From Desulfurococcales archaeon (GTDB lineage: Archaea > Thermoproteota > Thermoprotei_A > Sulfolobales > Desulfurococcaceae): a stretch of DNA of 64,000 nt. Positions within the stretch are counted from its first letter, which is position 1, and each line of letters opens with the position of its first letter. The stretch lies in contig JALVYU010000031.1 in NCBI GenBank assembly GCA_027022365.1, positions 430,391 through 494,390 of the forward strand, read 5' to 3'. The notes below the pieces were generated by a model. That model ran no database searches. It saw nothing but the letters and a program-made list of their open reading frames with translations, and was not told the origin of the DNA. Positions 42,732 through 59,768 of this stretch are shown here, piece by piece. A program made the translations under genes and the position numbers.

Positions 42732-43449
42732 TCCCCGTCTCCCCCTTGATCTTCTCGACTATGTATCCACCGGCTATGCTGTATACTTCTCTGAGCCGGG
42801 GGTCTTTAAGCCTCGAGGCCTTATCCATGATCTTCTCTCTGAGCTCCTCTACTGTTCTCGAGCTATTTATTATCTCGAGCAGATCGTCCAGTATGTAGTC
42901 CCGGTCATAGTAGCCCACATACCTTGTAAGATAGTATCTCAGATCCTTGTAGAGCCTCTCGTTGAAGAGCACGCCGTATCTGCGGTCTAGGACGTGTCTT
43001 CTCGGATAGAGTATCTTCGCCTCGATCTTCTTGTTAACTAGGCCGAGCAGCTGGCCGAGCCCGAAAAGTATTGCTTCGGGCCTGGGCGGGCAGCCGGGTA
43101 TGTATATGTGTACGGGGATTATCTTGTCGACCCCGCCGTACACAGCCAGGCTGTCGTAGAAGATCCCCCCGGCGATAGCGCACGCCCCTACAGCGGCGAC
43201 TATTCTTGGTTTGGGCGGCATCGCCTCGTATACTCTCTTCAACCCTATCACGGCCTGCCTGTTCACCGAGCCGCTTACAAGCAGTGCATCCGCCTGCCTA
43301 GGCGTGGGCACGAGCTTCACGCCGAACCTCTCGACATCGTAGAACGGCGTCAGGACGTCGAGTACCTCGATATCGCATCCATTACAGGCGCTGGCATCTA
43401 CGTGGAATACCCATACGCTCCTAAAACGGGGTCTGGGACGCCCTCCCAT
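42700..43449 (-). CDS. Group 4 [NiFe] hydrogenase small subunit (NuoB/HycG-like)
   Basis: ACNGCDIE, PRQAD, VGACA and IPGCPPRPEA. Confidence 0.92.
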   Translation of the reverse strand: MGGRPRPRFRSVWVFHVDASACNGCDIEVLDVLTPFYDVERFGVKLVPTPRQADALLVSGSVNRQAVIGLKRVYEAMPPKPRIVAAVGACAIAGGIFYDSLAVYGGVDKIIPVHIYIPGCPPRPEAILFGLGQLLGLVNKKIEAKILYPRRHVLDRRYGVLFNERLYKDLRYYLTRYVGYYDRDYILDDLLEIINSSRTVEELREKIMDKASRLKDPRLREVYSIAGGYIVEKIKGETGTVQGKHRVQV

Positions 43450-43975
43450 ACTTATCAGTCCTCCTACTACGTAGTGCGTCGTGCGAGAAAACCTGTCTTC
43501 TACAGTCCCGGCAGAGGAACATCCTGTCTAGAAGCTCTTTTCTCCTCTCCCTGGGTATTCTTGTCAGCAAAGTGTATGCTCTGTGGATCTGTCTCTCGGT
43601 GAACTCCGTGTACCTGCCGCACCGGGAGCATGTGTGGAGCTCTAGGTTGACCTCGTAGATCAGGTCATCCTTCGACGGCGTGGCCATCTCGAATATGTTG
43701 GTGAGAACTATGGCTCCCTCGGGGCATACCTCCCAGCACCTGCCGCAGTAGATGCATCTACCGTAGAAGATCCTTATCCTCGCGTATCCCTCCCGGTAGT
43801 CGATCTCCTTCGTTATAGCGTTTGGCGGGCACGCCTCCGCGCATGCGCCGCAGCCGATGCAGAGGTCGGGGTTTATCTCCGGCTTACCCCTCAGCTCCCT
43901 CGGGGGCTCGAGGGGTTCTAGCGGGTACCTGAACGTGACTACCCATTTATCGGTCTTCTCAAAGTACTTCGCCAC
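43421..43975 (-). CDS. Hydrogenase 2x[4Fe-4S] subunit (NuoI/HycF-like)
   Basis: CIGCGACAEACP and CIYCGRCWEVCP. Confidence 0.92.
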   Translation of the reverse strand: MAKYFEKTDKWVVTFRYPLEPLEPPRELRGKPEINPDLCIGCGACAEACPPNAITKEIDYREGYARIRIFYGRCIYCGRCWEVCPEGAIVLTNIFEMATPSKDDLIYEVNLELHTCSRCGRYTEFTERQIHRAYTLLTRIPRERRKELLDRMFLCRDCRRQVFSHDALRSRRTDKYGRASQTPF

Positions 43976-43981
43976 GGCCCC

Positions 43982-45709
43982 TCACCCTATCCTTGAGGAT
44001 AGTTTTCTGGACTTAGCCCTCAGCTCGTCGTCTGTCATGATCTTCTTCGAGCCTGTATCGACGTCTATAACCAGGTACCTCTCCGTACATGCTAGGCAGG
44101 GGTCGACCGAGGCGTATATTATCGGTGCGTCGGCGAGCCTGTACCCGATGAGCATCTCCTTGACCGGCGGTATGTTGGCGTAGCTGGGGGCCCTTACCCT
44201 CCATCTCTGGATCTTATTGTATAGGCCGCTCCTAACATAGTGTATGTCCTCGCCCCTGGGCGCCTCGACAACGCCTACAGCCTCCTTGTTCTCCGGGATA
44301 CCCTTCACGTCCGCTGCCAGTGGGCCTCCCGGCAGGGCATCAAGGATCTGCTCGATTAGGTCGAGGGACTCGAATACCTCGTCGAGCCGGACAAGCGTTA
44401 TTGCCAGGACATCCCCCTCGCTGTACACGGGGACGTCGAAGCTGAGCTCCTTGTAGGCCGCATAGGGGTGGTCTCTCCTAACATCTATGTCGAGCCCGGT
44501 GGCCCTCGCGACAGGGCCTACGACGCCGTAGCTTATAGCCGTATCCCTCGGGAGCACTCCCACGCCACGCGTCCTCTTGACGAGTATCGAGTTGTTCACC
44601 AGCATGTTGTAGAGCTCCCTGTACTCGTACCTGATCTTCTTCACCGAGTCCCTCGCCTTGGCCAGCCTGTCTCCCAGCACGTCCCTCCGGACGCCGCCGA
44701 CAATGTCCATTCCATATGTTTTCCTGTTACCTGTCAGGATCTCGGCCAAGTGCATGATGTGCTCGCGGATCTTCCACGACAGCATGAAGCCCGTGTCGAA
44801 GCCCAGTATGTGGCAGGCGATCCCTACCCATAGGAGGTGGCTCTCGATCCTCTCGATCTCGAGCATGAGGCTCCTGATATACCTTGCCCGGTCAGGGATA
44901 TCTATGCCGGCCAGGGACTCGATAGCCTGCACGTAGGATGTCGCGTGGGTGAACCCGCATATCCCGCATATCCTCTCAGCTATGAATGGTATCTGGTTAT
45001 ATGTTAGCCTCCCCTCAGCTATCTTCTCGATCCCCCTCCAGTTATGGAAGCCCCTGTGCTCCGCATCAACTATTATTTCGCCCTTCACGTATAGCCTCCA
45101 GTGTATCGGCTCGTCGTTGATCATATGGTAGGGCCCCATCCCTATCACGTCAAGATCCTCGTGGCGCCCGACGGGCTTGTAGTCGGGGAGCCCCTCCCTC
45201 CAGTCCATCACAGGCTTATTGTAGGGGTGGTCCTTCCTCCACGGGTGGGCGTCGTCGGGCCAGTACTCGGGCAACACTAGCTTGCGCTTATCCTTCAGCC
45301 CGACGAACTCTATTCCGTAGAGATCCCTATTCTCCCTCTCATTCCACCAGGCCGCCTTAACCATGTCCGCTATGCTCTGGATTTCTGGGTCGTGTTCGGG
45401 CAGATACGCCCTGACGCCTATGTAGAGGTTCTGCTTGTCGAACGCCACTATGTATGTCAGCGAGAAGTCTCGTCTGAAGTACCTCTCGTCGTTCCCCACG
45501 ATCACGCTCAGCCTCGTGTAGGAGAACGTCATCAGCCGCCTGATTATCTCCCTTATGTTCTCCCTCGGTGCGAGGTATATGATTAGATCCTTTGTAGGGC
45601 CGTACTTTTCGGTGTAGAGGCCGTGGAGCTCCCTATCGATAATCCCCACTACCTCTTCTCTCCCCAGATCCTCGATGTTTCTCCTCCAGAAATCTACCAA
45701 CCAAGCCAC
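43982..45709 (-). CDS. Group 4 [NiFe] hydrogenase large subunit (fused NuoC/D, HycE-like)
   Basis: L1 motif ERICGICG and L2 motif DPCLACTER, followed by a C-terminal extension. Confidence 0.95.
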   Translation of the reverse strand: MAWLVDFWRRNIEDLGREEVVGIIDRELHGLYTEKYGPTKDLIIYLAPRENIREIIRRLMTFSYTRLSVIVGNDERYFRRDFSLTYIVAFDKQNLYIGVRAYLPEHDPEIQSIADMVKAAWWNERENRDLYGIEFVGLKDKRKLVLPEYWPDDAHPWRKDHPYNKPVMDWREGLPDYKPVGRHEDLDVIGMGPYHMINDEPIHWRLYVKGEIIVDAEHRGFHNWRGIEKIAEGRLTYNQIPFIAERICGICGFTHATSYVQAIESLAGIDIPDRARYIRSLMLEIERIESHLLWVGIACHILGFDTGFMLSWKIREHIMHLAEILTGNRKTYGMDIVGGVRRDVLGDRLAKARDSVKKIRYEYRELYNMLVNNSILVKRTRGVGVLPRDTAISYGVVGPVARATGLDIDVRRDHPYAAYKELSFDVPVYSEGDVLAITLVRLDEVFESLDLIEQILDALPGGPLAADVKGIPENKEAVGVVEAPRGEDIHYVRSGLYNKIQRWRVRAPSYANIPPVKEMLIGYRLADAPIIYASVDPCLACTERYLVIDVDTGSKKIMTDDELRAKSRKLSSRIG

Positions 45710-46644
45710 CCCATAACGAGCCCGATAAGCGGTATCACGGATGCGAGTATCAGAGGCTTAAACGCCAGGTCAACCCTGTACCTGGGGTATAGGGCCTCTA
45801 TGACGGAGTAGACGCTCATCGTGATGAGGAGGAACAGGGTGAAAACGCCTAGGACAAGCACTGATAGCAGTGGCCCCGAGACAAGGGATCGAAGCACCGC
45901 CGCCACAGGCGATACAAGCACCAGCGACACGGGTAGCGATAAGAGTATGTATCTCTTGAGGAGCAGGGCGTAGAGGAACAGCCCGTAGTACCTCCCGCTG
46001 AACTCTAGGTAGGGCCCACCGAGCACCTCCGTCTCGGCCTCGCCCATATCGAACGGGGTGTAGGCGGACTCGATATACGCTAGTATGAAGAGGGATGCTG
46101 ACAGGAAGAGAGTGCTTATCCTCAGGTAGTTCCCGGGGAAGCCGTACAGCACCGCGAGGCCGTAGAGGTTCAGCGTCTTCATCTTATACGCTATGCCGAC
46201 GATCGTGAACGCGATGAAGACCTCGAACACCGTCACGGTCAGCGCCTCCCTAGCCGATCCGGCGTTTGAGTACGGGTTCGGCAGCGCTAGTCCTAGCAGG
46301 ACGACGAGCACGGAAACGAATAGCAGCGCGTACAACAGCGTGATGGCGTCAAACACTGTGCTGAACCCTGGGACGTAGGGTATGGGCACCGCCGCCGATA
46401 GTACTAGCATGGATACGAACACTATGTATGGTGTAACGATCATGAACATGTTCTTGAAGGGCAGAACCGGCTGCAGGCTGAATAGCTTCGATAGATCATA
46501 TATGGTCTGCAGCAGCGGCGGCCCGATCCTCCTCTGGACCTTGGCCCTGATCTTGCGTCTCAACCCATCGAGCACCGGGGCCATGAAGGCCCCGAGCAGT
46601 ATCAGGACGATCACCCAGACCGTTCTGAGCATGCACTCGTCCAC
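45694..46644 (-). CDS. Hydrogenase membrane subunit (NuoH/HycD-like)
   Basis: QRRIGPP..Q..YD..KL and PFDMGEAETE. Confidence 0.92.
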   Translation of the reverse strand: MDECMLRTVWVIVLILLGAFMAPVLDGLRRKIRAKVQRRIGPPLLQTIYDLSKLFSLQPVLPFKNMFMIVTPYIVFVSMLVLSAAVPIPYVPGFSTVFDAITLLYALLFVSVLVVLLGLALPNPYSNAGSAREALTVTVFEVFIAFTIVGIAYKMKTLNLYGLAVLYGFPGNYLRISTLFLSASLFILAYIESAYTPFDMGEAETEVLGGPYLEFSGRYYGLFLYALLLKRYILLSLPVSLVLVSPVAAVLRSLVSGPLLSVLVLGVFTLFLLITMSVYSVIEALYPRYRVDLAFKPLILASVIPLIGLVMGWLGW

Positions 46645-46648
46645 GGCT

Positions 46649-48679
46649 CTACACCCACCAGAACAAGAGTATTACGAGGATTATCACCGAGAGTATCAGT
46701 AAAGCTATGGTGAACAAGGCTATCGGGGAGACTATGATCAGCCTGGCCATGTTGCCGAACACCCTCACCGCCGCAACCACCGATGATCCGGCGAGCTCGT
46801 CGAGCTTGAACTCCCTTATCCCAGAATACTTTTCCGCGAGCCCCCGCGCCTTGGCGGCGAACCAGGTGTTCAGGCCGCCGAAGAACCTGGTTATCCTAGA
46901 AGCTATGCCGGAGTAAACTATTTTCGAGGGGATCCTCCACACCAGGCACTCGTATACCTCGTGGGAAAAACCCGTGAGGGGCTCGAAAATCCTCGAGAAT
47001 TCGATGTATAGGTGGCTGGGCCGTATAAGGTGCTTGTCGGGCGGGATAATGTATCCCGTCGTCCAGACCCTGCTGGTGACAACGTCTTTGCCCCTATCGA
47101 TATATCCCAGCAGCAGGCCGAGGCCGATCGACGCGAACACTATTAGTGGGAAGTAGTAGCCGTAGGGCGAAATAATGTGGATAAGCCCCGCCTCCACGGA
47201 GGCGTTGCCGGCGACGCCGTAGAAGCGCATGGATATACTCGTGAACAAGCCGAAGATCGAGTACAGGCCGAACACTACGAGCAATACGACGGGCACAAGC
47301 ATCCCAGCCCTCATCGGATACCCTATCCTCCCCCTCACCACCTTTTTCTCGACTAGCCTAAGCGCCGGGGCCATGTACTTGACGGAGTACAGCAGTGTAA
47401 GCGGGGACAACGCTATAACCATGGCAGCGATGACGCTGTACAGCGGGGACGCGCCCCTCAGGATCGACGCGTATATTGACAGCTTAGCGATATAGCCCAG
47501 CAGGGGCGGTAGCCCGGCAAGGCTCAGGGAACCAACTATGATGCTGATCATGGCTGTCCTGCTCACCGCGCCGATATTAGCCACGTCGTCGAGGCCGGCG
47601 GATCCGTAGACATATATGTAGCAGCCGCTCGTCAGGAACAATAGTGTCTTGAAAATACTGTGGGCGAACAGGTAGGCCAGCCCGGCCGCGAGTAGGAGCG
47701 CTGAGAGAACCCTGTCGAAGCCCAGCGTGATCGCCGAGAGGCTCAGGGGAACCAGTATGTATCCTATCTGTGAGACGCTCGAGTAGGCAAGCAGCCTCTT
47801 GGCGTGGTTCTCGCCCACAGCCTTGATCGAGCCCCAGAAGATCGATAGCAGTGCCTGGACGAGCAACAAGTAGTATAAAATGACCGGGGGGTGCAGGTAC
47901 CTCAGCATCACGCCGAATAACCCGTAGACACCCATCTTTATCATTACGCCGCTGAGAAGCGATGATATGTTGCTAGGCGCGGCCGGGTGGGCGTCGGGGA
48001 GCCAGAAGTGGAGGGGGTATAGGCCCGCTTTAGCCGTGAAGGCGATGTAGAACATGATTATAGAGAGTAGCCAGGCAGGGCTCCGGTCATCAATGATCTT
48101 CTCGAGGGAGCTGAGCTGTAGGGTCCCGTAGCCCGCCCACAGCATGGAGACACCGAGTATAAGGGGGAAACTGTTGAGCAACAGCATCGTGTAGAGATAC
48201 TGCTTCGTCGCCCTAACAACGTGTTTCTCCCCGTACTCCCACCCTATCAGGACGATGCTTGTCAGGGTCATTACCTCCCAGAAGAACAGGAATAGGAGCA
48301 GGTTATCCGATATACACAGCATCGCCATCGAGGAGAGGAACAGTGAAACCATTAGGGAGTAGGCCCAGGCACCGCCTAGCCCCTTGTATATCTCCATGTA
48401 CTCCATCCCGTACAGGCTTATGGATAGGCCGGCCAGCCCTATTACTGCTAGGAATAGTGCTGAGAAACTATCTATGCAGAAGTAGCCGTAGAGACAGGCG
48501 CTGGACCCCCTGATCATGATCGTGGACGACAGTATGAGCTGGGAGAGCGAAGCGATGAATACGAATGAGAGGCCAGCCCTGATCGATAACGTGTAGTTGC
48601 TTCTGAGAGCGAGTGGGATGATTATTGCTAGGGCATAGGCTGACGCCATAACCCCGAATAGGGTGCTTGCTAGATCCAT
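46649..48679 (-). CDS. Proton-translocating membrane subunit (HyfB/NuoL-like)
   Basis: FFWEVM, KAGLYPLHFWLPDAHPAAP and KRLLAYSS. True start is ATG 48679; the extension to 49273 overlaps the upstream gene. Confidence 0.9.
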   Translation of the reverse strand: MDLASTLFGVMASAYALAIIIPLALRSNYTLSIRAGLSFVFIASLSQLILSSTIMIRGSSACLYGYFCIDSFSALFLAVIGLAGLSISLYGMEYMEIYKGLGGAWAYSLMVSLFLSSMAMLCISDNLLLFLFFWEVMTLTSIVLIGWEYGEKHVVRATKQYLYTMLLLNSFPLILGVSMLWAGYGTLQLSSLEKIIDDRSPAWLLSIIMFYIAFTAKAGLYPLHFWLPDAHPAAPSNISSLLSGVMIKMGVYGLFGVMLRYLHPPVILYYLLLVQALLSIFWGSIKAVGENHAKRLLAYSSVSQIGYILVPLSLSAITLGFDRVLSALLLAAGLAYLFAHSIFKTLLFLTSGCYIYVYGSAGLDDVANIGAVSRTAMISIIVGSLSLAGLPPLLGYIAKLSIYASILRGASPLYSVIAAMVIALSPLTLLYSVKYMAPALRLVEKKVVRGRIGYPMRAGMLVPVVLLVVFGLYSIFGLFTSISMRFYGVAGNASVEAGLIHIISPYGYYFPLIVFASIGLGLLLGYIDRGKDVVTSRVWTTGYIIPPDKHLIRPSHLYIEFSRIFEPLTGFSHEVYECLVWRIPSKIVYSGIASRITRFFGGLNTWFAAKARGLAEKYSGIREFKLDELAGSSVVAAVRVFGNMARLIIVSPIALFTIALLILSVIILVILLFWWV

Positions 48680-48681
48680 GA

Positions 48682-50043
48682 TCAAATGATCGCACCTCCC
48701 CCGGCGATACAGGATACTATCCAGTAGGCGAAAACATTCAGCACAATCATCATGGCGATCAGCGCGTCGAGGAGGCCCGGAGAGTAGCCCATTCCCTCCC
48801 CGGAGGCCCCTTCCCCGGGAAACAGTATTGAAGCCAGTATCCTGAAGAAGAACAGGCTGCTCACAAACCATGCGAGGACAGGCACTACGGCGGCCACGCC
48901 CATCGAGGCGAATGTGTTCTTGAGTATCATTATCTTTGCGATGAACAGGTTGAAGGGAGGAGCCCCTTCGACCGCGAGTATGGATGCCGCGAGCAAGAAT
49001 CCTGCGTGCGGGTAGAGCCTCCTGATGCGGCCGTAGTCCCCGCCGTAAACGCCCATAGTCATGAACGCCGATGCCTTGGAGAGGCCGTGGCACATAATGT
49101 ATAGTGGTAGGAGAAGCGCGAGCGCCCCCATACCCGGCAGCGTCAGGGCAAGCACCATCCACGACATATTGTATATCGTAGACCACGCTAGCATGGAGGA
49201 AAGCCTCCTGGCGCCCCAGTACCAGATGATTGAGATGATCATGGAGACGAGCGATAGGGATACGAGCAGCCACACGTAGTTCTCGGGAAGCCTCATGGCC
49301 GAGGCCAGCCTGTACAGGCCATACACCCCGAGCGGGTCGACTATGCCCGAGAACAGCGCCGAGTAGAGCGGCTCTATATTGTCATATACTTGTTGGACCC
49401 AGTAGTGGAACGGGAATACACCGGCCTTGCTCACGAACCCCGCGGCGAGCAGTAGCGCCGGGACGACCAGGGTCTCGCCAGTGCTCCTCGTCATGTCGTA
49501 GGCGTTGTCGGCGTATAGGAGGGCGGCGCCGACCAGTATCATGAAACCGGTTATATGCATTGTTAAATAGTAGGTGTAGTGGGGGCCGGTGTCCCGGGAC
49601 GTTGATAGGATCATATAGTATGCTATGAAGCTAATGGCCTCCCAGAGAACCGCGAAGACCAGCCAGTTATCGGTTAGTACGAGCAGCGATGTCGCGTAGA
49701 GTAGGAGGGATAAGACACCGTACTTGGCGAATCTCCCATCGCTTATGCTGCTGTACCTTATATACGTGTAGATGCCAGCCACCAGTACTATGATGGATGA
49801 TGTCAGCACGTATACCGTGGAAAGAATATCCGCGTACAAGCCGATCCCTAGAGGCAGGTTTATTCTAGCGGGGAGCCCCCCGGCAACTAGGGCGGGGACT
49901 AGTAGAATGCTTAGCAGGGAATAGGTTGTCGTGGATATGAGCCCTAACAATCTTTTCTTCGAGGCGTCGGCCAGGATCGACGCGATGACCAGCGCTGGGT
50001 AAACGAGCAACAGTAGCAACGCCATGTAGAGCGGCTGGGCCAT
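48682..50043 (-). CDS. Antiporter-like membrane subunit (MrpD/NuoM/N-like)
   Basis: LWEA, KAGVFPFHYW and GAPPF. Confidence 0.88.
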   Translation of the reverse strand: MAQPLYMALLLLLVYPALVIASILADASKKRLLGLISTTTYSLLSILLVPALVAGGLPARINLPLGIGLYADILSTVYVLTSSIIVLVAGIYTYIRYSSISDGRFAKYGVLSLLLYATSLLVLTDNWLVFAVLWEAISFIAYYMILSTSRDTGPHYTYYLTMHITGFMILVGAALLYADNAYDMTRSTGETLVVPALLLAAGFVSKAGVFPFHYWVQQVYDNIEPLYSALFSGIVDPLGVYGLYRLASAMRLPENYVWLLVSLSLVSMIISIIWYWGARRLSSMLAWSTIYNMSWMVLALTLPGMGALALLLPLYIMCHGLSKASAFMTMGVYGGDYGRIRRLYPHAGFLLAASILAVEGAPPFNLFIAKIMILKNTFASMGVAAVVPVLAWFVSSLFFFRILASILFPGEGASGEGMGYSPGLLDALIAMMIVLNVFAYWIVSCIAGGGAII

Positions 50044-50046
50044 GTC

Positions 50047-51516
50047 CTACATCACCCTATAGATGCTCGGTATCATTACCGTGAAAGCCCATATCTGGGA
50101 AAGATACAGGCCCACCAACAGTATTATGAACGAAGCGTACATGTAGGGGGGAAGACCGGGTAATGGCCCGGCCGGGGCCTTCCTCCCGCCTACCCAGTGC
50201 ATGCTGACAGCCAGTAGCACCGCTGATTCGGCGAAGATCGCTAGGAGCGCCGCCAGGTAGATCGGAATAGTTATGACGGGGCCGGATAATACCACCATGT
50301 AGGCCTTAGCGACGGAGAACAGCGGGACACCCGCCAGTCCGAGCAGAACACAGAGCAACAAGTTGTAGAGGAGCCTGCTGGAGGAGAAGTACTCCATTAC
50401 CCTCACGAGATCATGTGTTCCGACAGAGTAGCCCGCACTGCCCATTAATAGGAAGCCGAGGCTCTTGAGGAAGGCATGGGCGGTAAAGTAGAGCAGGAAC
50501 AGGGATAGTCCGAGCCGTAGGGAATACACCATGAGGGATACCGTGAAGTACATTATGGCCGCCTCGGCTATGGTGGAGTAGGCTAGCAGCCTCTTCCCAT
50601 CCCTCAGCGCGGGGTACATGAGGGTGGAGATGATTACTGAGAAGATGATCGGGGCCAGTATGATGTATTGTGCATTAACGGGCACGCCGCCCATAGAGTA
50701 GATTATCCTCGCAACCAGGTAGGGCCCCATCTCGATCATGGTTGCGCCGTGGAGAAGAGCGGATGTGGGAGTCGGCGCGACCATCGCGTCGGGAAGCCAG
50801 GAATACGTTGGGAACTGGGACGACTTAGTGATGGCCGCCCACATCACCAGGCCCAGTACTAGCAGCTTGCCGGACGGGCTCAGGGAGCTCAGCGTACTCA
50901 ATGATACGCTCCCATAGTTCAGCGCGAGATACCCTATAGCGGCCGCTAAGCCTCCGTACGCTCCCAGATGGGTCACCACCAGCATCTTATACGACGACCT
51001 GGCGGCCTCCGGCGTGCCAGAGTATGATATCAGGCCCCAGCACGCAAGGCTCATCAGCTCGAAGTTTATGAGGAGCTGTATCAGGTTAGAGGAGAAGATG
51101 AAGAGCATTACCGAGAAAATGAAGAGGTACATCCACGCATAAAACCTTGGCTTACCGGTAACTACTGGGTGGTAGTTGTTCTGCGGCGACATATAGTTCG
51201 TGCTGTAGAGCATTATGGCCCCGGCGACAACCGATATTATCAGGGCCATGCCCGCCGAGAAGGGATCAACTATGAATCCATAGACCTCGCCGAGTCCGCC
51301 GGCGCTGTAAAGCCTGATATGGCTTATCGGGAAGCCCAGGTAGGCGTAGTAGGCGTAGAAAACTATCCCGGAAAAGATCAGGAGAACGCTAAAGAACACG
51401 TTTATCTTTACAACGTATTTCTCTCCCGACACTATAGAGAGTATAAAGGCGCATAAAGGCAAAAGAGCCAAAAACACCAGCGGCACAAGCATGATCCGTT
51501 CCTCGCCAACATCCAT
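50047..51516 (-). CDS. Antiporter-like membrane subunit (HyfD/NuoL-like)
   Basis: TKSSQFPTYSWLPDAMVAPTPTSALLH and KRLLAYST. Confidence 0.9.
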   Translation of the reverse strand: MDVGEERIMLVPLVFLALLPLCAFILSIVSGEKYVVKINVFFSVLLIFSGIVFYAYYAYLGFPISHIRLYSAGGLGEVYGFIVDPFSAGMALIISVVAGAIMLYSTNYMSPQNNYHPVVTGKPRFYAWMYLFIFSVMLFIFSSNLIQLLINFELMSLACWGLISYSGTPEAARSSYKMLVVTHLGAYGGLAAAIGYLALNYGSVSLSTLSSLSPSGKLLVLGLVMWAAITKSSQFPTYSWLPDAMVAPTPTSALLHGATMIEMGPYLVARIIYSMGGVPVNAQYIILAPIIFSVIISTLMYPALRDGKRLLAYSTIAEAAIMYFTVSLMVYSLRLGLSLFLLYFTAHAFLKSLGFLLMGSAGYSVGTHDLVRVMEYFSSSRLLYNLLLCVLLGLAGVPLFSVAKAYMVVLSGPVITIPIYLAALLAIFAESAVLLAVSMHWVGGRKAPAGPLPGLPPYMYASFIILLVGLYLSQIWAFTVMIPSIYRVM

Positions 51517-51534: not shown

Positions 51535-53397
51535 TTATGGGCTGAGCCTTCTCTTCTCGAGGTGCTTCAGGATTATATCTGCGGCGGTCTCTGGGTCCGG
51601 CTCGATGACCAGTCTGCCTCCCGTTATCTTCTCCATCTCCTCCGTCAGGAACTTCTCCACGCCCGGCGCCGCAAGGATCTGCGGCACCGTCCCGACGTGG
51701 CTGAGCAATCCATGCGCCATATAGTAGAGCACAGCACTCAGTGCTTTACCGTTCATCCACTCCGGCGCACTCGCCGCGAACGGGGCCTTATTTAGCGGTG
51801 CGCCGAGCTCCCTGCTTATCTCGTAGAGTATGAGTAGCTCCCTCGTGGTTTCAACGCATGGTCCTAGCGGTATCACTGGCGGCAGGTTGAACGCCGCCAA
51901 CAGCCTCATGAGCCCCTTGCCCGCGAGCCTGATTGACTCAGGCTTCGCTAGGCCCGTCAGCGCGGCCGCCATCATCGAGCACCCCATCGTGAATACCAGC
52001 ACGTCGTTCTCGATCAGCTTCTTGGCGATTGTGTAGTGGCCGTAGTTGTGCTTTACCTTCGGGTTGGTGCAGTGGTGCATGACCACTACTCCCTTTATGC
52101 TGCCATCTCTTATCGCGTCGGCTATCGGCTTGAAGGATCCGCCGAATGCCTTCTTTAGCCCGTTCAGGGTCGGGTTGGTTGTGAACTCCGAGACGTGTGT
52201 CGGCCTATAGATCTTCTCGGGCTTCCTGTTGGCATAGTTCTTGATCGCGAGCCTGACTATTTCTTTGGCTACGCTTGAAGCGTTCTCGGGCGTCATCGGC
52301 ATATGTATGGCTCCGGGTAGCTTGGCCACGGGGTCTACTATCACGATCTTTGTATGGTATTTCCTCGCGATCTCGACTATGTGGGGATATATGCACTGGT
52401 GATCAACAACCATTACCTCGGTGAGCCCCGTTATGATCGGTAGCTCCTGCATGATCATGTTGCCGCTCGGTATGATGACGGATATGCCCTTCGCCCCCGC
52501 CTTCCTAGCCATTTCGAGCAGCTCCGGATCCTGTGCCGCCATCTTGATCTTGCCGGCGAAGACTGGCATGACCCTGATGAATATGTTGACGTTGTCGGGG
52601 CTGATGATTCCGAGGCCGCTACGGCCTTTTCCAGGCGTCTTATCTCCGAGCAGGATCTCGTCCATAATCGTTGTTGTGAACGTGGCTAGGAGGCCGTCGA
52701 GTATAGATATCCTGATCGCCTGCTTCACCACGCTGATCGGGTCGGAGTCGGTACCCATGTTAGACCTGTAGTTAGCATCGATAAGTTCTCTCGAAAACCC
52801 TCGGGGCAGTAGGCCGTTCTTCTCCCATACCTCAATTATCTCCTCGGGCACAAGCTTCAGGGCTGTTTGGAGCGGCTCGTCCGTCAGCCTGTGGATCTCT
52901 GTCTCGAGCAAATCCACCAGTGATCCGAGCAGGTCGAGATCGTTCTCGGCCTTCAGCCCCAGCGTGTCGGCCAGCTCGTGGAGCCTCTCCGGGTTCTTCA
53001 GGACATAGTCTTTAGTCCTGCCCTCCGCGACCGCCCTAGCGGTATTTATCATGATCAGTGCTTCCTGCAGCCTCGTCGTAGCCCCGTGGACAACAAGGTC
53101 CAGCAGATCCCTCGAAGCTATGAGATCAGGGTCAGCGCCGCACGTACCGGTCGGGAAACCGTAGCCGAAGGGGTCTACTCTGCACGGCCCTGTGTTGCAG
53201 TGTCTACAGCAAACGCCAGTAAGCCCGAACCCGCACTGGGGCTGCTGGTACTGGAACCTGTGCCAAACCGTGTCGACGCCTTCGAGATCAGCCTTCTTAA
53301 CCAGCTCGTTCACGTCCGGGGTGATCGAGACATACCCCTTGATTTTTAAACCAATATACGCCCTTTCGGTCAAGACCGGGATCACCACTCGAACCAT
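51535..53397 (-). CDS. cooS: Ni-CODH (CooS) family protein, atypical active site
   Basis: QQPQCGFGLTGVCCRHCNTGPC (D/B cluster ligands), DHQC, MGC, GPCVE and PEWMNGKA are present. The HGH and CCTGNE motifs are missing. Confidence 0.88.
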   Translation of the reverse strand: MVRVVIPVLTERAYIGLKIKGYVSITPDVNELVKKADLEGVDTVWHRFQYQQPQCGFGLTGVCCRHCNTGPCRVDPFGYGFPTGTCGADPDLIASRDLLDLVVHGATTRLQEALIMINTARAVAEGRTKDYVLKNPERLHELADTLGLKAENDLDLLGSLVDLLETEIHRLTDEPLQTALKLVPEEIIEVWEKNGLLPRGFSRELIDANYRSNMGTDSDPISVVKQAIRISILDGLLATFTTTIMDEILLGDKTPGKGRSGLGIISPDNVNIFIRVMPVFAGKIKMAAQDPELLEMARKAGAKGISVIIPSGNMIMQELPIITGLTEVMVVDHQCIYPHIVEIARKYHTKIVIVDPVAKLPGAIHMPMTPENASSVAKEIVRLAIKNYANRKPEKIYRPTHVSEFTTNPTLNGLKKAFGGSFKPIADAIRDGSIKGVVVMHHCTNPKVKHNYGHYTIAKKLIENDVLVFTMGCSMMAAALTGLAKPESIRLAGKGLMRLLAAFNLPPVIPLGPCVETTRELLILYEISRELGAPLNKAPFAASAPEWMNGKALSAVLYYMAHGLLSHVGTVPQILAAPGVEKFLTEEMEKITGGRLVIEPDPETAADIILKHLEKRRLSP

Positions 53398-54002
53398 CTA
53401 GAAGTACGGGTCTTCTCCGCGAGGATGTGAAGGGGTGTCCTAGACTCCGATGAAAAGACCATATAGGATTTGACGCCTTCTTTCCTGGACTCATAAACCT
53501 TCCTCATAACCAGCTCCTTACGTCTCCTCATAACTTCGCCGACGGTGCCGTACATCAGAGCCCCGGTTGGGCAGGCCTCTACACACGCCGGCGGGAGGCC
53601 TCCCGCTCTCCTGTCGGGGCAGAGATCGCACTTCACCATTATCTTGTTGAAGACATCGAGTTCGGGCACGCCGAACGGGCATGCGACACCGCAGGTGAGG
53701 CAGCCGATGCACTTCAGGGGGTTAAGCACTACGGCGTCGTCCTGATCCCTCTCCAGAGCCCTCGTCGGGCACACCTCGATGCACGGTGCTTGTTCGCAGT
53801 GGCGGCAGTTCAGGGGCGAGGGGAGGCCTAGATCCCATAGGTACACGACCCTTATCCTAGCCCTCGGCCTCGGGTACTCCTTGATGGCGATGAAGAGGCT
53901 CTTGCTCTGCGAATGCTCCACCGCACACGCTATCTCGCAGGATCGGCATCCCACGCATCTCGTAGGATCTATGAAGACCACCGGTTTATCGGATATCGCC
54001 AA
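53382..54002 (-). CDS. cooF: CooF/HycB-like 4x[4Fe-4S] electron-transfer protein
   Basis: CVGCRSCEIAC, CRHCEQAPCIEVCP, CIGCLTCGVACP and KCDLC..PACVEACP. Likely start is TTG at 54002. Confidence 0.88.
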   Translation of the reverse strand: MAISDKPVVFIDPTRCVGCRSCEIACAVEHSQSKSLFIAIKEYPRPRARIRVVYLWDLGLPSPLNCRHCEQAPCIEVCPTRALERDQDDAVVLNPLKCIGCLTCGVACPFGVPELDVFNKIMVKCDLCPDRRAGGLPPACVEACPTGALMYGTVGEVMRRRKELVMRKVYESRKEGVKSYMVFSSESRTPLHILAEKTRTSRWFEW

Positions 54003-54122
54003 ACCAACAGCACCTTGGATCAAGTGATGCTGTTTGCTCGTTATGCCTTTATCGAGTGGTTTTAAATTAAAGAGCCCGTGATTCACTGTTTATAGGGGCG
54101 GTTGCCTGATCCGTTAAAACGG

Positions 54123-55694
54123 CTAGTGGGTGAGGAAGCGCTCTATGATCCCTCTCACTGATCCTATGTAGTCCGTGGGGCTGAACAGCTGCCCCGACAC
54201 ACTGGTTGAGAGCTGTGAGAGGAGTGGAAGGGCTAAGCCTACAACGACTACTAGGATGCACAGAATAGTTATTGAAGCCTTAACAGTCCATCCCGGCCTG
54301 AGCACGCCCGTCTTGACTGGGGCCTCGTTGACGAGGAGGTTTATTATCCTGAAGTACCCTATGGCCGCTATTGCGCTTGTAATGATGATTATCAGTGCAG
54401 CGCCGATGTTGCCGGCTCCCACCGATGCAGCTATCAATAACAGCTTGCTCGGGAACGTGCCCAGGGGGGGTACGCCGGCGAGCCCCAGCATAGCGATGAT
54501 CATGCCTGCCGAGGCGCCTGGATAGAGCTTAGCGAATCCCTTCAAATCCCTGATGTTCCTAGTGCCCGCCGCCGAGACTAGTACTCCGACAGATAGGAAT
54601 GCCAGGGCCTTAGATATGGAATGCGTTATGAAGTGGTATATCGAGGCCGCCAAGGCGTACCTCGTACCAATACTTATGCCGATAATGATGAGGGATACAT
54701 GCATAACCGTGCTGTAAGCAATGATCCTCTTTATATCGGTCTCTATAAGCATCATCACCGAAGCGTAGAGTGCGCCGAGGCACCCAAGCACCACCAGGAC
54801 ATCGAGTACGACCGATAACCCGCCGACGGCGTGCCTTCCCCATGACAGCACCGTGTAGAAGAGCCTTATCAGCCCGTATAGCCCGGCGTTCACGACAAGG
54901 CCAGATAAGAGCGCGGAAACCGGTGAGGGGGCCTCCGAGTGGGCGTCGGGGAGCCAGAAGTGGAGCGGGAAAGCGGCTGACTCCAGCATCAGGGACCAGA
55001 CTATTAGACCTACTATGAGGAGCAGAGGAGCGGCCGCGACCACTGTGTTGCCGCTGAACAGGTTCATAGGTGTGGGTAGGCCGAGGATCTTCGCCGACAG
55101 GTCGGGTATGCTCAACGTGCCGATGTATGCGTAGATGAAGCCTATTCCCAGGAAAAGCAGTATCCCCGCCAGACAAGCTATCATGCCGTACTTCAGCGCT
55201 GCCTCGACGGCTTCTCCCTTGTTCTTATGGTAGCCCACGAGGGCGTAGGCGGTTACGGCCATTAGCTCTATCATTACGAAGAAATTGAATAGATCACCTG
55301 TATAGTATATGCCGATCAGCGCCGAGGACATAAGCAGTACCAGTATATACATGTAGTGGATCCCATGCTCTCTCCCGCCAAAGTACCCGATCGAGTAAAC
55401 AGCTATTAAAAATATTATCAGCGATGAAAGCAGCGCCATGGTCGCCGACAGCTTGTCCACGACATAGACTATCCCCAGTGGCGGGAGCCACCCACCCGAG
55501 CCGTACACCAGGGTCTCGTTAAACCGGAGTACAGTGTACGCCACATAACCCGTCATTACCGCCGTGACTATGGTTGTAGATAGAAATATCGTGTCTGCCG
55601 CCCTCCTGGACTTATGGGTTACGCTGAGCAGCGCCAACAGTATTGCTCCGACCAAGCCGATGATCGGCGTGAGCACGGGTATGAAGGACTCCAT
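54123..55694 (-). CDS. mnhD: Mrp/Mnh Na+/H+ antiporter subunit D
   Basis: GWLPPLGI, TGDLFNFFVMIE and FWLPDAHSEAP. Confidence 0.9.
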   Translation of the reverse strand: MESFIPVLTPIIGLVGAILLALLSVTHKSRRAADTIFLSTTIVTAVMTGYVAYTVLRFNETLVYGSGGWLPPLGIVYVVDKLSATMALLSSLIIFLIAVYSIGYFGGREHGIHYMYILVLLMSSALIGIYYTGDLFNFFVMIELMAVTAYALVGYHKNKGEAVEAALKYGMIACLAGILLFLGIGFIYAYIGTLSIPDLSAKILGLPTPMNLFSGNTVVAAAPLLLIVGLIVWSLMLESAAFPLHFWLPDAHSEAPSPVSALLSGLVVNAGLYGLIRLFYTVLSWGRHAVGGLSVVLDVLVVLGCLGALYASVMMLIETDIKRIIAYSTVMHVSLIIIGISIGTRYALAASIYHFITHSISKALAFLSVGVLVSAAGTRNIRDLKGFAKLYPGASAGMIIAMLGLAGVPPLGTFPSKLLLIAASVGAGNIGAALIIIITSAIAAIGYFRIINLLVNEAPVKTGVLRPGWTVKASITILCILVVVVGLALPLLSQLSTSVSGQLFSPTDYIGSVRGIIERFLTH

Positions 55695-55699
55695 CTCGA

Positions 55700-56203
55700 T
55701 CAGTCCTCGAAGATCTTCTTGATCCACTTGTCGAAAACCATGATTATCTTCTCCCTAACGATGCGGGGGTCACGCGTATAGGCTTCGAGCCAGTGGACGA
55801 AGTACTTCTTGGCCTCGGGGTCAATGTCCACCACTATGGTTCCCGGCGTATTGGTTATAGAGTTGGCCGTAGCCGCTACCGCGTAGTCCGTCCTATAGTC
55901 GAACGGCACCTCGACAATGTCTGGCATATAGTCCCTGAGCCCCAACACCATCGAGGCTACCCGTAGGTGGCAGGCCGGCTCGACGACGAGCAGGTAGTAC
56001 AGCGTGTATGCTAGTCCGTAGAGCCATCTCTTCGGGGAGAGTGCTTTGCCGGGCTTCTTAACCACTTCCCCGCCCACGATCAAGGCCGCGACCATCGATA
56101 TTATCGGCGCTACTACTAGGTCAAACAACGTTATCCTTGCAACTATTAGGAAGTAGATGAGGATCCCCGCGAGCCATACGGCTATGTATCCCGCCCTCAT
56201 CAC
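55700..56203 (-). CDS. mnhE: Mrp/Mnh subunit E
   Basis: ANSITNTPGTIVVD..VHWL. Confidence 0.9.
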   Translation of the reverse strand: MMRAGYIAVWLAGILIYFLIVARITLFDLVVAPIISMVAALIVGGEVVKKPGKALSPKRWLYGLAYTLYYLLVVEPACHLRVASMVLGLRDYMPDIVEVPFDYRTDYAVAATANSITNTPGTIVVDIDPEAKKYFVHWLEAYTRDPRIVREKIIMVFDKWIKKIFED

Positions 56204-56610
56204 TGCTCACCCCTCAGCTCCTTCTTGATCATAGCAATTTTCTTGACGTCAAGCGTGCCGTACACCTCGTAGAGCCTTATGGCCAGGAATACGAGGAGTA
56301 TGGTTATTGATAGATTTATCACGACAGCGGTTATGGTGAGCGTCGGGGGGAGGGGGTCGACGCTTTCACTGATGAAACGTGTGAGGGTGGCGTTGTCGGG
56401 GGCCCAGCTAGTCATCACGTAGGGTGATACCGGGTACTTGAACCTGTACCCTATGAGCGCTAGGACGATGAAGCTGGTGTCGGCCAAGACCGTCAGGCAC
56501 GCGATCTTCTTCAGTACGTTGGGCCTCATGATCAAGCCGTAGAGCGCCATGCCGGCATTAGCCATGATTATGAGCCACACGTATAGCCAGAAGACCTCGC
56601 CCACGCCCAC
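56200..56610 (-). CDS. mnhC: Mrp/Mnh subunit C
   Basis: NVLKKI, DPLP..LTITAVVI and YGTLD. Confidence 0.9.
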   Translation of the reverse strand: MGVGEVFWLYVWLIIMANAGMALYGLIMRPNVLKKIACLTVLADTSFIVLALIGYRFKYPVSPYVMTSWAPDNATLTRFISESVDPLPPTLTITAVVINLSITILLVFLAIRLYEVYGTLDVKKIAMIKKELRGEQ

Positions 56611-56613
56611 CGC

Positions 56614-57399
56614 TTAATCACCCTCCTTGAGGCTCGCGATCACTCCTAGAAGAATGAATGCAACTGTAAAGGCCCCTGCGACGGCGAATAGCTCGAAGAG
56701 GTTCAGGAGGAATATACTGCCGCCGAGAGGCGTCGAGTCGATAAATCTGCCGGGGAAGCTAAAAGATGATCCTGGCTTGGCCTGGTTCTGGAACACGTAT
56801 CCGCCGGCGATGAGAGGCGTTATGATGACCAGTACCAGTAGTAGGAGGAAAGTAGCTCTGAGGAGGAGCGCCCTCCTATGCGTCAGGCCCAGCCTACGCG
56901 CATATCCCAGCGTGTAAACTAGGGCCAGGAGGACAGGCACGACGGCGAAGGCGGCGCCTCCGACGAATCCTCCTCCGGGGGTTATCTGGCCCGTGAAGCC
57001 GAAGGCGACCGCGATAATGATCGTTAGCCAGATTATTATCTTGGACACGGCCCTTACGATAAGGCTTAAGCCATAGATCTTCCCGGTCTTCCCCGGCTCG
57101 CTGTGCAGGTACTCCCTGTACACAAGGATCGCGCCTATGATGGCGCCGAACAGGACCATTGTTTCGTAAAGCGTATCCAGCCCTCGGTAGTCCCAGAGTA
57201 TCGCGGATACACCCTCGGGGGACTCTGCTGTAAAGTACTTCGTCGCGGGATTGATCATGTAGTACAGGTATTTCTCGCCTAGTAGCCTCAGTTTAGCCGG
57301 GGCGGGAGGCCCGCTAATGCCCAGCACGACCAATCCATACGCCAGAGCAAACAACACTATCAGTATCGAGACAGCCGCGACGAGCCCGGTCACCCTCAT
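56614..57399 (-). CDS. mnhB: Mrp/Mnh subunit B-like
   Basis: ILWDYRGLDTLYE and TPGGGFVGG. Confidence 0.88.
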   Translation of the reverse strand: MRVTGLVAAVSILIVLFALAYGLVVLGISGPPAPAKLRLLGEKYLYYMINPATKYFTAESPEGVSAILWDYRGLDTLYETMVLFGAIIGAILVYREYLHSEPGKTGKIYGLSLIVRAVSKIIIWLTIIIAVAFGFTGQITPGGGFVGGAAFAVVPVLLALVYTLGYARRLGLTHRRALLLRATFLLLLVLVIITPLIAGGYVFQNQAKPGSSFSFPGRFIDSTPLGGSIFLLNLFELFAVAGAFTVAFILLGVIASLKEGD

Positions 57400-57653
57400 G
57401 CCTCCTCAAACCTCTCCGTCTTTTTGACCGCGAACATTAGTAGCGCAGTATATATTCCGACGGCGACGGCGATGTAGGCTAGGACGACGTCGGGAACCAA
57501 TAATATGTAGAGGGCTATCGCGTAGAAAGTGGACTGCGCAGCCGACAAGACAATCATTTTGAGCAAGTCCCTCTCCTGCACCATCAGGTATATCGTTATG
57601 AATGAGACGCCGAGTACAACTGCCAGCATTACTAGGTGGAGCACCGGGAACAA
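57396..57653 (-). CDS. Small Mrp subunit (DUF4040/MbhD-like)
   Basis: 3 TM segments, ERDLLK and PDVVLAYIAV. Confidence 0.85.
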   Translation of the reverse strand: MFPVLHLVMLAVVLGVSFITIYLMVQERDLLKMIVLSAAQSTFYAIALYILLVPDVVLAYIAVAVGIYTALLMFAVKKTERFEEA

Positions 57654-58016
57654 CTACTTCTTCACCTCCCCGGGTATGCGTCTATAGGGCTTAAGGCCCG
57701 ACCTATAAGCGGCTCTGGCGACCGCGTGGCTCCCGGTAGGCGCTGTAATCAGTATTAGTGAAGCGATAACGAGCATAGGTAGGGCGAAAGAGAGCCTAGC
57801 GGAGAGAGATAGGCCGGGCACGCCGAAGACGAGGATCGCCGAGCCTATTATGGGGTACACCGCGCCGCCGATCGCCCCGATGGTTACAGCGTGCAGCCTG
57901 GTGTAGAAGTCGGGGAACTTGTTGACGCCTAGAGCCGCTACGAGGTCGAAGAGGCCCCCAATGAATATGATTGCTCCCCCGATAATCGTTAAAACTAATC
58001 CGCCCAGACCCATCAA
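57654..58016 (-). CDS. mnhG: Mrp/Mnh subunit G
   Basis: FPDFYTRLHA and TAPTGSHAVARAAY. Confidence 0.92.
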   Translation of the reverse strand: MMGLGGLVLTIIGGAIIFIGGLFDLVAALGVNKFPDFYTRLHAVTIGAIGGAVYPIIGSAILVFGVPGLSLSARLSFALPMLVIASLILITAPTGSHAVARAAYRSGLKPYRRIPGEVKK

Positions 58017-58291
58017 TCTCCCCCGTCACCACCTATACGTGTGAACCTGTCATAGTAGCGGGCGATCACGACGTCGAGAATATACGCCCATAAAGCCAGG
58101 AGTATTCCGGCGCCGAGCAACAAATATGATCGGAAATAAACACTCAGAATAACCATGAAAGCCGATACGTCATAGCAGAGAGCATCTATCGAGATCGTAG
58201 AATCAAATACGGTGGGACCCTTAAACCCCCTTACAGCATAGAGTATGAAGGCTACAATGTACAACGGTATGGATACGATTATAAATACCAT
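58013..58291 (-). CDS. mnhF: Mrp/Mnh subunit F
   Basis: KGPTVFD..ID and IARY. Likely start is ATG 58291. Confidence 0.85.
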   Translation of the reverse strand: MVFIIVSIPLYIVAFILYAVRGFKGPTVFDSTISIDALCYDVSAFMVILSVYFRSYLLLGAGILLALWAYILDVVIARYYDRFTRIGGDGGD

Positions 58292-58941
58292 CCATAGATC
58301 AATCAATAACCAGCACCATGGTAAAGACACTACCAGGCGATACAAAAATTAATAACGAGATTCTAGGAGGACACGCCGAGGAAATGATCACAAATCACGG
58401 GCTCCGTCAGAACACCCTGTATCAGAAAAACGGCCTTCTAGAAATTGTATTCTCCCCTCCCAATAGCCTTATACACGAATAGTACAGCCGGAATGTAAGC
58501 TACCGCAACAGCAAGTCCATCCCCAATAAACACGGACACCATACTCGCTGTAGAACTCGTCGTTTCTCCCACTGGAAACTGAATAGGGTCCATTTGCCCT
58601 TCTTCGCCGCTAGATATTTCGTTAGTCGCTCTGTACCTTATATAGACAGCTTCTCAATTTAAATAGACTAAACGCTCCTACGGCGCCCTAGTGCGGGTTA
58701 CTCTAACGATAGATGGCCGAAATATTTGTTGTGCTCCCATAGGATCTTATGTTGTTTGCTATCCGGAGGCCTTAGCGCTCTTCTAGTAGATGGGTTGAAA
58801 TCTTAATTTATGGGTTCTAGATACTCATATTATCTGTGTTCTGCGCCATAGTTTCTAGTTAGTTTTAAATAATAGAGCGATAATTATAACTTGAATAACA
58901 ATATGTATAATTCTATCTGTTCATATCTTACGGTGAAGCAG

Positions 58942-59709: not shown

Positions 59710-59768
59710 TTTTTACACCCCGGCCCCGGTTAAGGGCTATGCATGACTGTCCCGGATGTGATGCCGCT

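Follow-up and report, generated by a model that had tools for sequence, protein, structure and literature searches.

A loop-less CooS paralogue in an Mrp-type group-4 [NiFe] hydrogenase operon of a Desulfurococcales archaeon

Can a carbon monoxide dehydrogenase (CODH) that lacks ligands of its active-site cluster still serve as the head of a hydrogenase, and for which reaction? The question is raised by a 64,000-nucleotide stretch of DNA (the window) from a Desulfurococcales archaeon (assembly GCA_027022365.1, contig JALVYU010000031.1), which carries an atypical CooS, here called CooS2, inside an operon for an energy-converting hydrogenase with Mrp subunits. The window covers C31:430391-494390 of a 1.74-Mb genome with a marker completeness of 99.97 %. 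CooS2 is a paralogue of the archaeal clade-E CO dehydrogenase scaffold, and its sequence makes it, on balance, somewhat probable that the protein is a non-canonical Fe-S enzyme under selection, one that feeds electrons into the hydrogenase as its head and likely carries a four-Cys cubane. Two features are central to the argument:

51535..53397, minus strand: atypical CooS (CooS2, P0001, 620 amino acids (aa)), from PF03063, PDB 6t7j, an AlphaFold2 model and alignments
52473..52474, minus strand: junction of a 15-residue deletion between residues 308 and 309, at which the Cys295-bearing loop is removed, from the 6t7j and clade alignments

Fold, ligands and conservation of CooS2

The CooS2 coordinates correspond to exactly one open reading frame (ORF), read on the minus strand from an ATG at 53397. 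The true start may be a GTG at 53385, which forms a GTGA overlap with the cooF2 stop and serves as start codon in a 94 % identical relative; overlap and shared GTG together suggest translational coupling of cooF2 and cooS2. PF03063 matches CooS2 with 365 bits, versus 632 bits for the canonical CooS of the same genome, and the closest solved structure is the CODH of Thermococcus sp. AM4 (PDB 6t7j, E 3.9e-162). The models for hybrid cluster proteins were not matched (TIGR01703, 24.1 bits against a cut-off of 360.8; NF003658, 20.6 bits against 367). AlphaFold2 gave a confident model, with a predicted local distance difference test (pLDDT) score of 93.2 and a predicted template modelling (pTM) score of 0.92, which superposes on 6t7j with a template modelling (TM) score of 0.94 and a root mean square deviation of 1.2 A. 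CooS2 combines the family-level sequence match with the prismane/CODH fold, and by this model the CODH fold is intact.

Motifs were compared through a HMMER alignment of CooS2 to 6t7j and a 23-row alignment, and 17 rows of the CooS2 clade were set against 56 canonical rows. All of the B- and D-cluster Cys are kept (C55, C63, C64, C67, C72, and C86), and the pattern C55-x7-C63-C64, C67, C72, C86, which denotes a B-cluster and a type II D-cluster, is invariant or nearly so in all 73 rows. Cys2 to Cys5 of the C-cluster are likewise kept and invariant in the clade, as C335 (DHQC), C443 (HHC), C473 (MGC), and C514 (GPCVE), and so is the catalytic Lys, K551 (WMNGKA). Together with the six B/D Cys, these four make up the ten invariant Cys of the clade.

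Three other elements of the active site are lost. The canonical ..VHGHNP motif reads FIRVM-P in CooS2, turning HGH into R-V-M, and the second His, a C-cluster ligand, is M, L, or V across the 17 clade members. In the helix of the acid-base and proton-relay His, HxxH has become R-L-Q-E, with TTRLQEA in place of the canonical ..AHSDH.., and the acid-base His is Arg109 throughout the clade versus His in 56 of 56 canonical rows. Finally, Cys1, the Cys295 equivalent, is missing along with its loop: the VGMCCTGNEVLMRLG-type segment of canonical enzymes corresponds to a clean 15-column gap at window position 52474|52473, and these 15 residues are deleted in 17/17 clade members. In all, 51 alignment columns are fixed differently in the clade and in the canonical rows, 11 of them as gaps. 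Apart from the lost ligands, these columns include two His replaced by Y210 and N213, a Trp by L236, a Val by H441, an Asp by E516, and a Ser by N549. H333 (DHQC) and H441 (HHC) are clade-specific invariant His that flank cubane Cys. The original prediction, made from this sequence without database searches, had listed the retained Cys and Lys motifs, the change of VHGHNP to FIRVMP, the reading HGATTRLQEA at the N-terminal His motif, and a clean deletion of some 14-15 residues near 52475, and all of these are borne out by the alignments.

Residue numbers of CODH-II were assigned by matching motifs, the N-terminal half being offset by -16, rather than from a residue-by-residue CODH-II alignment. 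On this basis we take R109 to be His93, E112 to be His96, R275 to be His259, and M277 to be His261. The deleted loop presumably held Cys295, and we likewise take C335 to be Cys333, C443 to be Cys446, C473 to be Cys476, C514 to be Cys526, and K551 to be Lys563. The numbers agree with PDB entry titles naming the variants H93A, H96D, C295D, and K563A, and also with Table 2 of PMC6344411 and with PMC9311411, as far as the available text of these two papers goes.

A word-indexed protein search with CooS2, in which 8000 candidates were scored, returned 959 matches. Among them is a tight clade of 16 clusters (P0002-P0017; 43 member sequences, 609-616 aa) that are 64-94 % identical to CooS2; canonical archaeal CODHs follow at 42-43 %. 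The gap and the substitutions are common to all 17 clade rows, CooS2 included, and are not specific to one strain. Between CooS2 and its 94 % identical relative (L004), the ratio of nonsynonymous to synonymous substitution rates (dN/dS) is 0.033 by the Nei-Gojobori method (617 codons, dS 0.89, dN 0.029). The proportions of nonsynonymous (pN) and synonymous (pS) differences to L086 are 0.16 and 0.74, and toward more distant clade members synonymous sites are saturated, with pN at 0.11-0.19. Such values indicate that the clade is under strong purifying selection.

Near-identical DNA occurs in 10 sequencing runs of 4 studies, the labelled ones being hydrothermal vent metagenomes. The deletion junction is spanned, with 0 gaps and no indels listed, by contigs from three runs (X2, X10, and X3), which belong to three studies, one of them possibly the source. 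The contig of run X4 stops 24 nucleotides (nt) beyond the junction and was not counted as bridging.

The hydrogenase operon and its paralogues

The gene for CooS2 belongs to a row of 16 minus-strand genes between 58345 and 42700, most of which overlap their neighbours or are separated from them by a few bases. Six small Mrp/Mbh subunits come first, followed by an MrpD-like subunit, CooF2, CooS2, three antiporter-like subunits, and then the NuoH-like, large, NuoI-like, and NuoB-like subunits. Besides cooS2, the operon consists of:

58013..58345, minus strand: MrpF/PhaF-like small membrane subunit, 110 aa, the operon's first gene (PF04066, E 4.6e-7; 92 % conserved and syntenic in L004)
57654..58016, minus strand: MnhG/PhaG-like subunit, 120 aa (PF03334, E 1.4e-19)
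57396..57653, minus strand: MbhD-like subunit, 85 aa (PF13244, E 5.9e-11)
56614..57399, minus strand: MnhB-domain membrane subunit, 261 aa (PF04039, E 6e-14)
56200..56610, minus strand: NuoK/MrpC-like subunit, 136 aa (PF00420, E 1.9e-15)
55700..56203, minus strand: MnhE-like subunit, 167 aa (PF01899, E 1.6e-24)
54123..55727, minus strand: MrpD/NuoN-like antiporter subunit, 534 aa (PF00361, E 2.8e-59)
53382..54086, minus strand: CooF-like polyferredoxin CooF2, 234 aa (PF13247 and other Fer4 families)
50047..51516, minus strand: antiporter-like subunit, 489 aa (PF00361, PF00662; syntenic in L004, L086, and L089)
48682..50043, minus strand: antiporter-like subunit, 453 aa (PF00361, E 1.5e-18; syntenic)
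46649..48679, minus strand: NuoL/MbhH-like antiporter subunit, ~676 aa (PF00361, PF00662)
45694..46644, minus strand: NuoH-like membrane anchor, 316 aa (PF00146, E 2.7e-40)
43982..45709, minus strand: group-4 [NiFe] hydrogenase large subunit, a NuoC-NuoD fusion, 575 aa (PF00346, PF00329, PF00374)
43421..43975, minus strand: NuoI-like 2x[4Fe-4S] ferredoxin subunit, 184 aa (Fer4 families)
42700..43449, minus strand: NuoB-like hydrogenase small subunit with a C-terminal extension, 249 aa, the operon's last gene (PF01058, NF005012)

The presence in one operon of NuoB-, NuoI-, and NuoH-like subunits, four PF00361 antiporter-like subunits, and the small Mrp subunits identifies an Mrp-Mbh group-4 hydrogenase. 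Its large subunit keeps both NiFe Cys pairs (C248, C251, C538, and C541, invariant in the hydrogenase alignment), and the operon is intact, as had been predicted. CooF2 has 16 Cys in four CxxCxxCxxxC-type groups, counted in the translation, and is 50 % identical to the CooF of the genome's canonical cluster. For the NuoL/MbhH-like gene, the mechanically called ORF (46649-49273, 874 aa, GTG at 49273) overlaps the preceding gene by ~590 nt, and the start is likely the ATG at 48679, 2 nt after the preceding stop. Directly 3' of cooS2, in the slot that cooC holds in the canonical cluster, lies the gene for the 489-aa antiporter-like subunit; family searches of the operon genes found neither cooC nor a V4R regulator within the operon. 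Convergent on the operon end, at 41292-42425 on the plus strand, is a gene for a 377-aa protein that is conserved beside the operon in L004. Its C-terminal ModE/LysR-type helix-turn-helix (HTH) region and the regulator of the canonical CO cluster share 30 % identity over 100 aa, the N-terminal part is unrelated, and the protein could be a dedicated regulator with a different sensor.

In L004, all 16 operon genes have matches in the same order, and the order is also kept in L085 and L087 (82 % CooS identity), L089 (78 %), and L086 (75 %) as far as each shorter contig reaches. The hydrogenase context is therefore kept in these five of the six non-self loci. In the sixth, L003 (70 %; same contig as L088), cooF2 and cooS2 are followed by a phosphoesterase, parts of an energy-coupling factor (ECF)/ATP-binding cassette (ABC) transporter, and a sugar kinase, and the contig begins 210 nt before cooF2. 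The genome of L003, G152, carries a group-4 hydrogenase cluster on its contig C9, which ends ~900 nt past the small subunit; this cluster may or may not be linked to cooF2-cooS2 across the gap between the contigs.

The same contig as the window also holds a canonical CO cluster, C31:405462 to ~420725 (locus L083), which ends ~10 kb before the window. It encodes a V4R-domain protein, a protein with a C-terminal LysR-type HTH, CooF, CooS, CooC (CbiA family), and an antiporter-like subunit, and continues with NuoH-like, [NiFe] large, ferredoxin, and small subunits and Mrp genes, an arrangement that can be summarized as corQR-like/cooF/cooS/cooC/Mbh/Mrp. The CooS of this cluster has 640 aa and complete motifs. 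Because the canonical CO cluster is complete, the organism is probably able to oxidise CO by the ordinary route. The cooC gene lies at C31:409930-410724, ~20 kb before the window start. A third Mbh-Mrp cluster, at C31:290747-303917 (L233), has as its head a 359-aa FAD/NAD(P) pyridine-nucleotide-disulfide oxidoreductase, which adjoins a CooF-like protein. Two antiporter-like subunits and the genes for hydrogenase and Mrp follow, and the arrangement resembles FNOR-CooF-hydrogenase. The genome has three paralogous Mbh-Mrp modules that all include a CooF-type adaptor but differ in the head, which in one of them is CooS2. Antiporter-like subunits number four in the cooS2 cluster, versus two and three in its paralogues.

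Loop-less relatives and known CODH systems

The clade is conserved and rare. CODH matches at E <= 1e-20 came from 16 of 151 genomes sampled within the same order, and the atypical form was present only in the window's own genome, the other full-length matches being at most 43 % identical. Among GTDB species representatives, the atypical CooS was found only in L003 and L004. A representative library of 1.84 billion proteins contains the clade as a single representative, P0005, and its next full-length match, P0122 (37 %), belongs to a second loop-less lineage.

This second lineage comprises 12 clusters that are 49-54 % identical to P0122. In every one of them, a 16-column gap falls at the position of the CooS2 deletion and the first His of HGH is Arg. 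Tyr or Gln stands where the acid-base His would be and Glu where the Lys would be, and the B/D Cys are retained along with the four of the cubane. A contig titled as uncultured Thermoproteaceae archaeon (L115, 9356-14943) has, in this order, cooF, a loop-less cooS (608 aa), and genes for a NuoCD-fused large subunit with intact [NiFe] Cys pairs, for a ferredoxin, for a small subunit, and for a nitroreductase. No membrane subunits were found within 10 kb, and the locus may encode a soluble group-4-like hydrogenase module. A further protein, P0123, has Arg at His93, S-T-D for HGH, and the Cys-Cys loop in an altered form, and is possibly an intermediate; it has no close relative among the species-representative genomes, where its best match (48 %) is canonical.

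Phylogenetic trees place both lineages and P0123 beside or within the archaeal E-1 group, which includes the CooS of T. onnurineus and the genome's canonical CooS. When 2 rows of the second lineage were used, the loop-less lineages joined with a Shimodaira-Hasegawa-like approximate likelihood ratio test (SH-aLRT) support of 94, nested in archaeal E-1. With 12 such rows they still joined, at a support of 25, and the canonical E-1 rows took their own side at 97. The trees carried long-branch warnings and neither show nor reject one loss of the loop versus two. Gaps at the Cys295 loop also occur in P0152 and P0157, which belong to the representative library and fall in different parts of the tree, and loss of this loop may be recurrent in the CODH family.

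The closest relatives in sequence and fold are the hydrogenogenic CODH clusters of Thermococcus type (clade E-1; T. onnurineus P0054 and Thermococcus sp. AM4 6t7j), at 41-43 % identity and a TM score of 0.94. These clusters (CooS, CooF, CooC, Mch hydrogenase, and Mnh/Mrp), of which a canonical copy is present in the same genome, share with the cooS2 operon the CooF partner, a group-4 NuoCD-fused [NiFe] hydrogenase, and Mrp subunits. Unlike them, CooS2 lacks the His261, Cys295, and His93/96 equivalents, and its operon lacks cooC and the V4R regulator. The gene order is also permuted, with Mrp genes first and cooF-cooS in the middle, and there are four PF00361 subunits as opposed to two in the canonical cluster.

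Repurposing of the CODH scaffold is already known. CooS-V of Carboxydothermus hydrogenoformans (group D-1; PDB 7b7q/7b9a) has a changed Cys295 position, contains no Ni, and does not oxidise CO (according to the available text of PMC9311411), which indicates that the scaffold can host another cluster. It superposes on the CooS2 model with a TM score of 0.93. The two differ in that CooS-V keeps the His and has Cys295 replaced by a Glu that ligates an Fe/S/O hybrid cluster, whereas CooS2 has neither residue and the loop is deleted. CooS-V also belongs to a different clade (E 3.2e-82 versus 3.9e-162 for 6t7j), and no hydrogenase operon is reported for it in the available text of PMC9311411, whereas CooS2 lies inside one. 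Clade B CODH (RfCODH) and hybrid cluster proteins are further cases in which the prismane/CODH fold has been turned from fast CO oxidation to other ends (available text of PMC13592312 and PMC9311411); in clade B, unlike in CooS2, Cys2 is changed to Asp or Glu and the genes are associated with ABC transporters.

As regards ligand loss, the Cdh-type groups A-4 and A-6 are the only groups in Table 2 of PMC6344411 that lack the C-cluster His and Cys1 while keeping Cys2-5. They are CdhA-type proteins of clade A with E and F clusters, their losses are substitutions (D/P, N/S) and not a loop deletion, and the Lys is changed too; in contrast to CooS2, they are not linked to hydrogenases in the available text of that paper. 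No CooS-type group in the same table combines loss of the His and of Cys1. The study (Inoue 2019) concludes that catalytic subunits of [NiFe] hydrogenases coexist only with the complete-motif groups E-1, F-1, and F-2, and to this conclusion, as worded in the available text, the clade is a counter-example. Gapped or deleted D-, B-, or C-cluster or catalytic positions are an exclusion criterion in Inoue 2019 and in Inoue 2022 (PMC8776680), in a 2026 marine survey (PMC13240472), and in Bohm & Land 2026 (PMC13056359), insofar as their available text describes the filtering. Since all four surveys drop gapped sequences, the clade would be invisible to them. The module had been called potentially undescribed, and consistent with this, no description of a loop-less CooS was found in open-access full text (supplements not covered).

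Possible roles of CooS2 and neighbouring genes

What could such a site do? In canonical enzymes, the three cubane Fe are bound by Cys333, Cys446, and Cys476 and the Ni by Cys526, with His93 and Lys563 as the acid-base pair. A pendant (exo) Fe, which binds the hydroxide nucleophile, has His261 as its second ligand. The C-cluster is described as a [Ni-3Fe-4S] cubane linked to this unique exo Fe (text of PMC6006190), and Cys295 is reported to coordinate it as Fe1, the C295A/E variants of CODH-II being Ni-deficient and without CO oxidation (text of PMC9311411). In CooS2, a pendant Fe that binds the water or hydroxide nucleophile could presumably not be built, and in its absence the canonical CO/CO2 mechanism should not be possible. 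With both pendant-Fe ligands and the acid-base His missing from a clade under strong purifying selection, there is good in silico support for the view that CooS2 is no canonical CO oxidiser. In this the original prediction, which also named a different cluster or substrate, or an electron relay feeding H2 evolution and ion pumping, as candidate roles, is supported.

The C-site would most likely hold a plain four-Cys cubane, either [4Fe-4S] or possibly [Ni-3Fe-4S], within a shell re-fixed with R109, E112, R275, H333, H441, and E516. From this cubane, electrons would pass via the B and D clusters to CooF2 and then via the NuoI-like and NuoB-like clusters to the NiFe site. CooS2 and the 16-Cys CooF2 would form the cytoplasmic electron-input (or output) head of an ion-translocating Mrp-type group-4 [NiFe] hydrogenase, in the same slot as the canonical CooS and the FAD/NAD(P) oxidoreductase of the two paralogous clusters. 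Either oxidation of a substrate would drive H2 evolution and ion export, or H2 or the gradient would drive reduction at the CooS2 site. A pocket that has been re-fixed with Arg, Glu, and His and is not drifting favours catalysis on another substrate over a passive wire, and a true reaction with a small substrate other than CO seems to us more likely than a pure relay. It may be speculated that two Arg in place of two His, together with the kept Lys, would suit an anionic ligand.

A wider proposal, plausible though short of probable, is that the loop-less CooS proteins of the Desulfurococcales clade and the Thermoproteaceae lineage form an unrecognised CODH-derived Fe-S family. Their four-Cys cubane, a simplified C-cluster in a remodelled, charged pocket, would act on a substrate other than CO, perhaps a small oxyanion or some other low-potential donor or acceptor, with the reaction coupled via CooF to H2 turnover and, in Desulfurococcales, to ion translocation by an Mrp-Mbh complex with extra antiporter modules.

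Among the alternatives, a catalytically silent Fe-S relay or docking subunit, with an ordinary [4Fe-4S] at the old C-site and ferredoxin or another soluble carrier as the real donor, is unlikely but the most credible. Four Cys are the standard ligand set of a [4Fe-4S] cluster, the B/D Cys are all kept, and the operon has no other candidate catalytic gene. Mbh-type hydrogenases accept ferredoxin directly, which would suit such an arrangement. However, a 620-aa dimeric scaffold is costly as a wire when CooF2 already brings four clusters, and the dN/dS of 0.033 speaks against a silent subunit. The old active-site shell is not degenerate, having been re-fixed with charged and polar residues across sequences of 64-94 % identity, and in the two paralogous clusters the same slot is held by true enzymes.

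A second alternative, which we rate as quite improbable, retains CO as the substrate: CooS2 would have a non-canonical Ni-Fe-S centre, for example with Ni on Cys514 and with new ligands such as His333 or His441 replacing the Fe1 site, and would be a second hydrogenogenic isoenzyme. Several observations weigh on this side and against the Fe-S enzyme reading that we prefer. TIGR01702, the NCBIfam model for CODH, scores CooS2 at 497.5 bits, over its cut-off of 478, in a match that is split over two stretches. The equivalents of Cys526 and Lys563 and the entire electron wire are kept, and the operon has the architecture of the clusters that join true hydrogenogenic CODHs to an energy-converting hydrogenase (ECH). 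The new invariant His beside two ligand Cys could be compensating ligands for an extra metal. Maturation may be shared with a canonical CODH, because cooC and a canonical CooS are present both in this genome and in G151, the genome of the closest relative, which has both CODH types and cooC. In G152, the only PF03063 match is the atypical gene, leaving that genome without another CODH; this fits the present alternative, but together with the lack of a convincing cooC there it also supports the preferred reading, as a sign that CooS2 is independent of the CO machinery.

On the other side stand the loss of both Fe1 ligands and of the acid-base His and the inactivity of the Ni-deficient C295A/E variants (PMC9311411, available text). 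The sister-like second lineage lacks even the Lys563 equivalent and has no such His, and in Inoue 2019 (PMC6344411, available text) [NiFe] hydrogenase neighbours are confined to complete-motif groups. No convincing cooC was found in G152 (best match E 1.2e-4, to a generic P-loop stretch), although this absence, like that of an upstream hydrogenase, is not proven, as the completeness of G152 is not established and the cooS2 contig starts just before cooF2. The lack of cooC had also been part of the original prediction. It is correct for the cooS2 operon, yet a cooC lies on the same contig ~70 kb away, and the absence is weaker evidence than assumed since the genome has the gene and some true CODH operons lack maturases (PMC6006190, available text).

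Decay into a pseudogene, or a deletion that is an assembly or strain artefact, would fit a Pfam score nearly halved relative to the canonical paralogue, but this explanation is refuted and its residual probability negligible, because the frame is open, all 17 clade members share the changes, dN/dS is low, synteny extends down to 75 % identity, contigs from other studies bridge the site without indels, and the predicted fold is confident.

Complexes of CODH and hydrogenase serve as a model of minimal energy conservation close to equilibrium, and there is interest in them for CO2/CO biocatalysis. If the site of CooS2 is a simple cubane, it would show how far the C-cluster scaffold can be stripped while under selection, and the preferred reading, if true, would point to an as yet unrecognised partner, donating or accepting electrons, in the hydrogen metabolism of hydrothermal Thermoproteota. 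The family-wide proposal would add a new respiratory module of hyperthermophilic vent archaea. There is also a consequence for annotation: P0277, of the second lineage, has the NCBI name 'anaerobic carbon-monoxide dehydrogenase catalytic subunit [Crenarchaeota archaeon]', and since pipelines name such proteins as CODH catalytic subunits, carboxydotrophy may be over-predicted from metagenome-assembled genomes of this kind.

Scans for Rfam families, tRNAs, and tandem repeats in the rest of the window gave nothing relevant. Divergent from the operon, the plus-strand gene at 59739-60533 encodes a di-iron metallo-beta-lactamase protein of the ODP family (PF19583, E 1.5e-74) whose sequence weakly resembles the N-terminal part of flavorubredoxin NO reductase, and an unannotated 272-aa ORF (58891-59709) lies between it and the operon. 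Elsewhere, a hydrogenase-large-subunit-like match of 30-32 % identity with one in-frame TGA was seen both in this genome (G000:C26:171875-172975) and, at the corresponding gene, in that of the closest relative (G151:C5:148677-149789).

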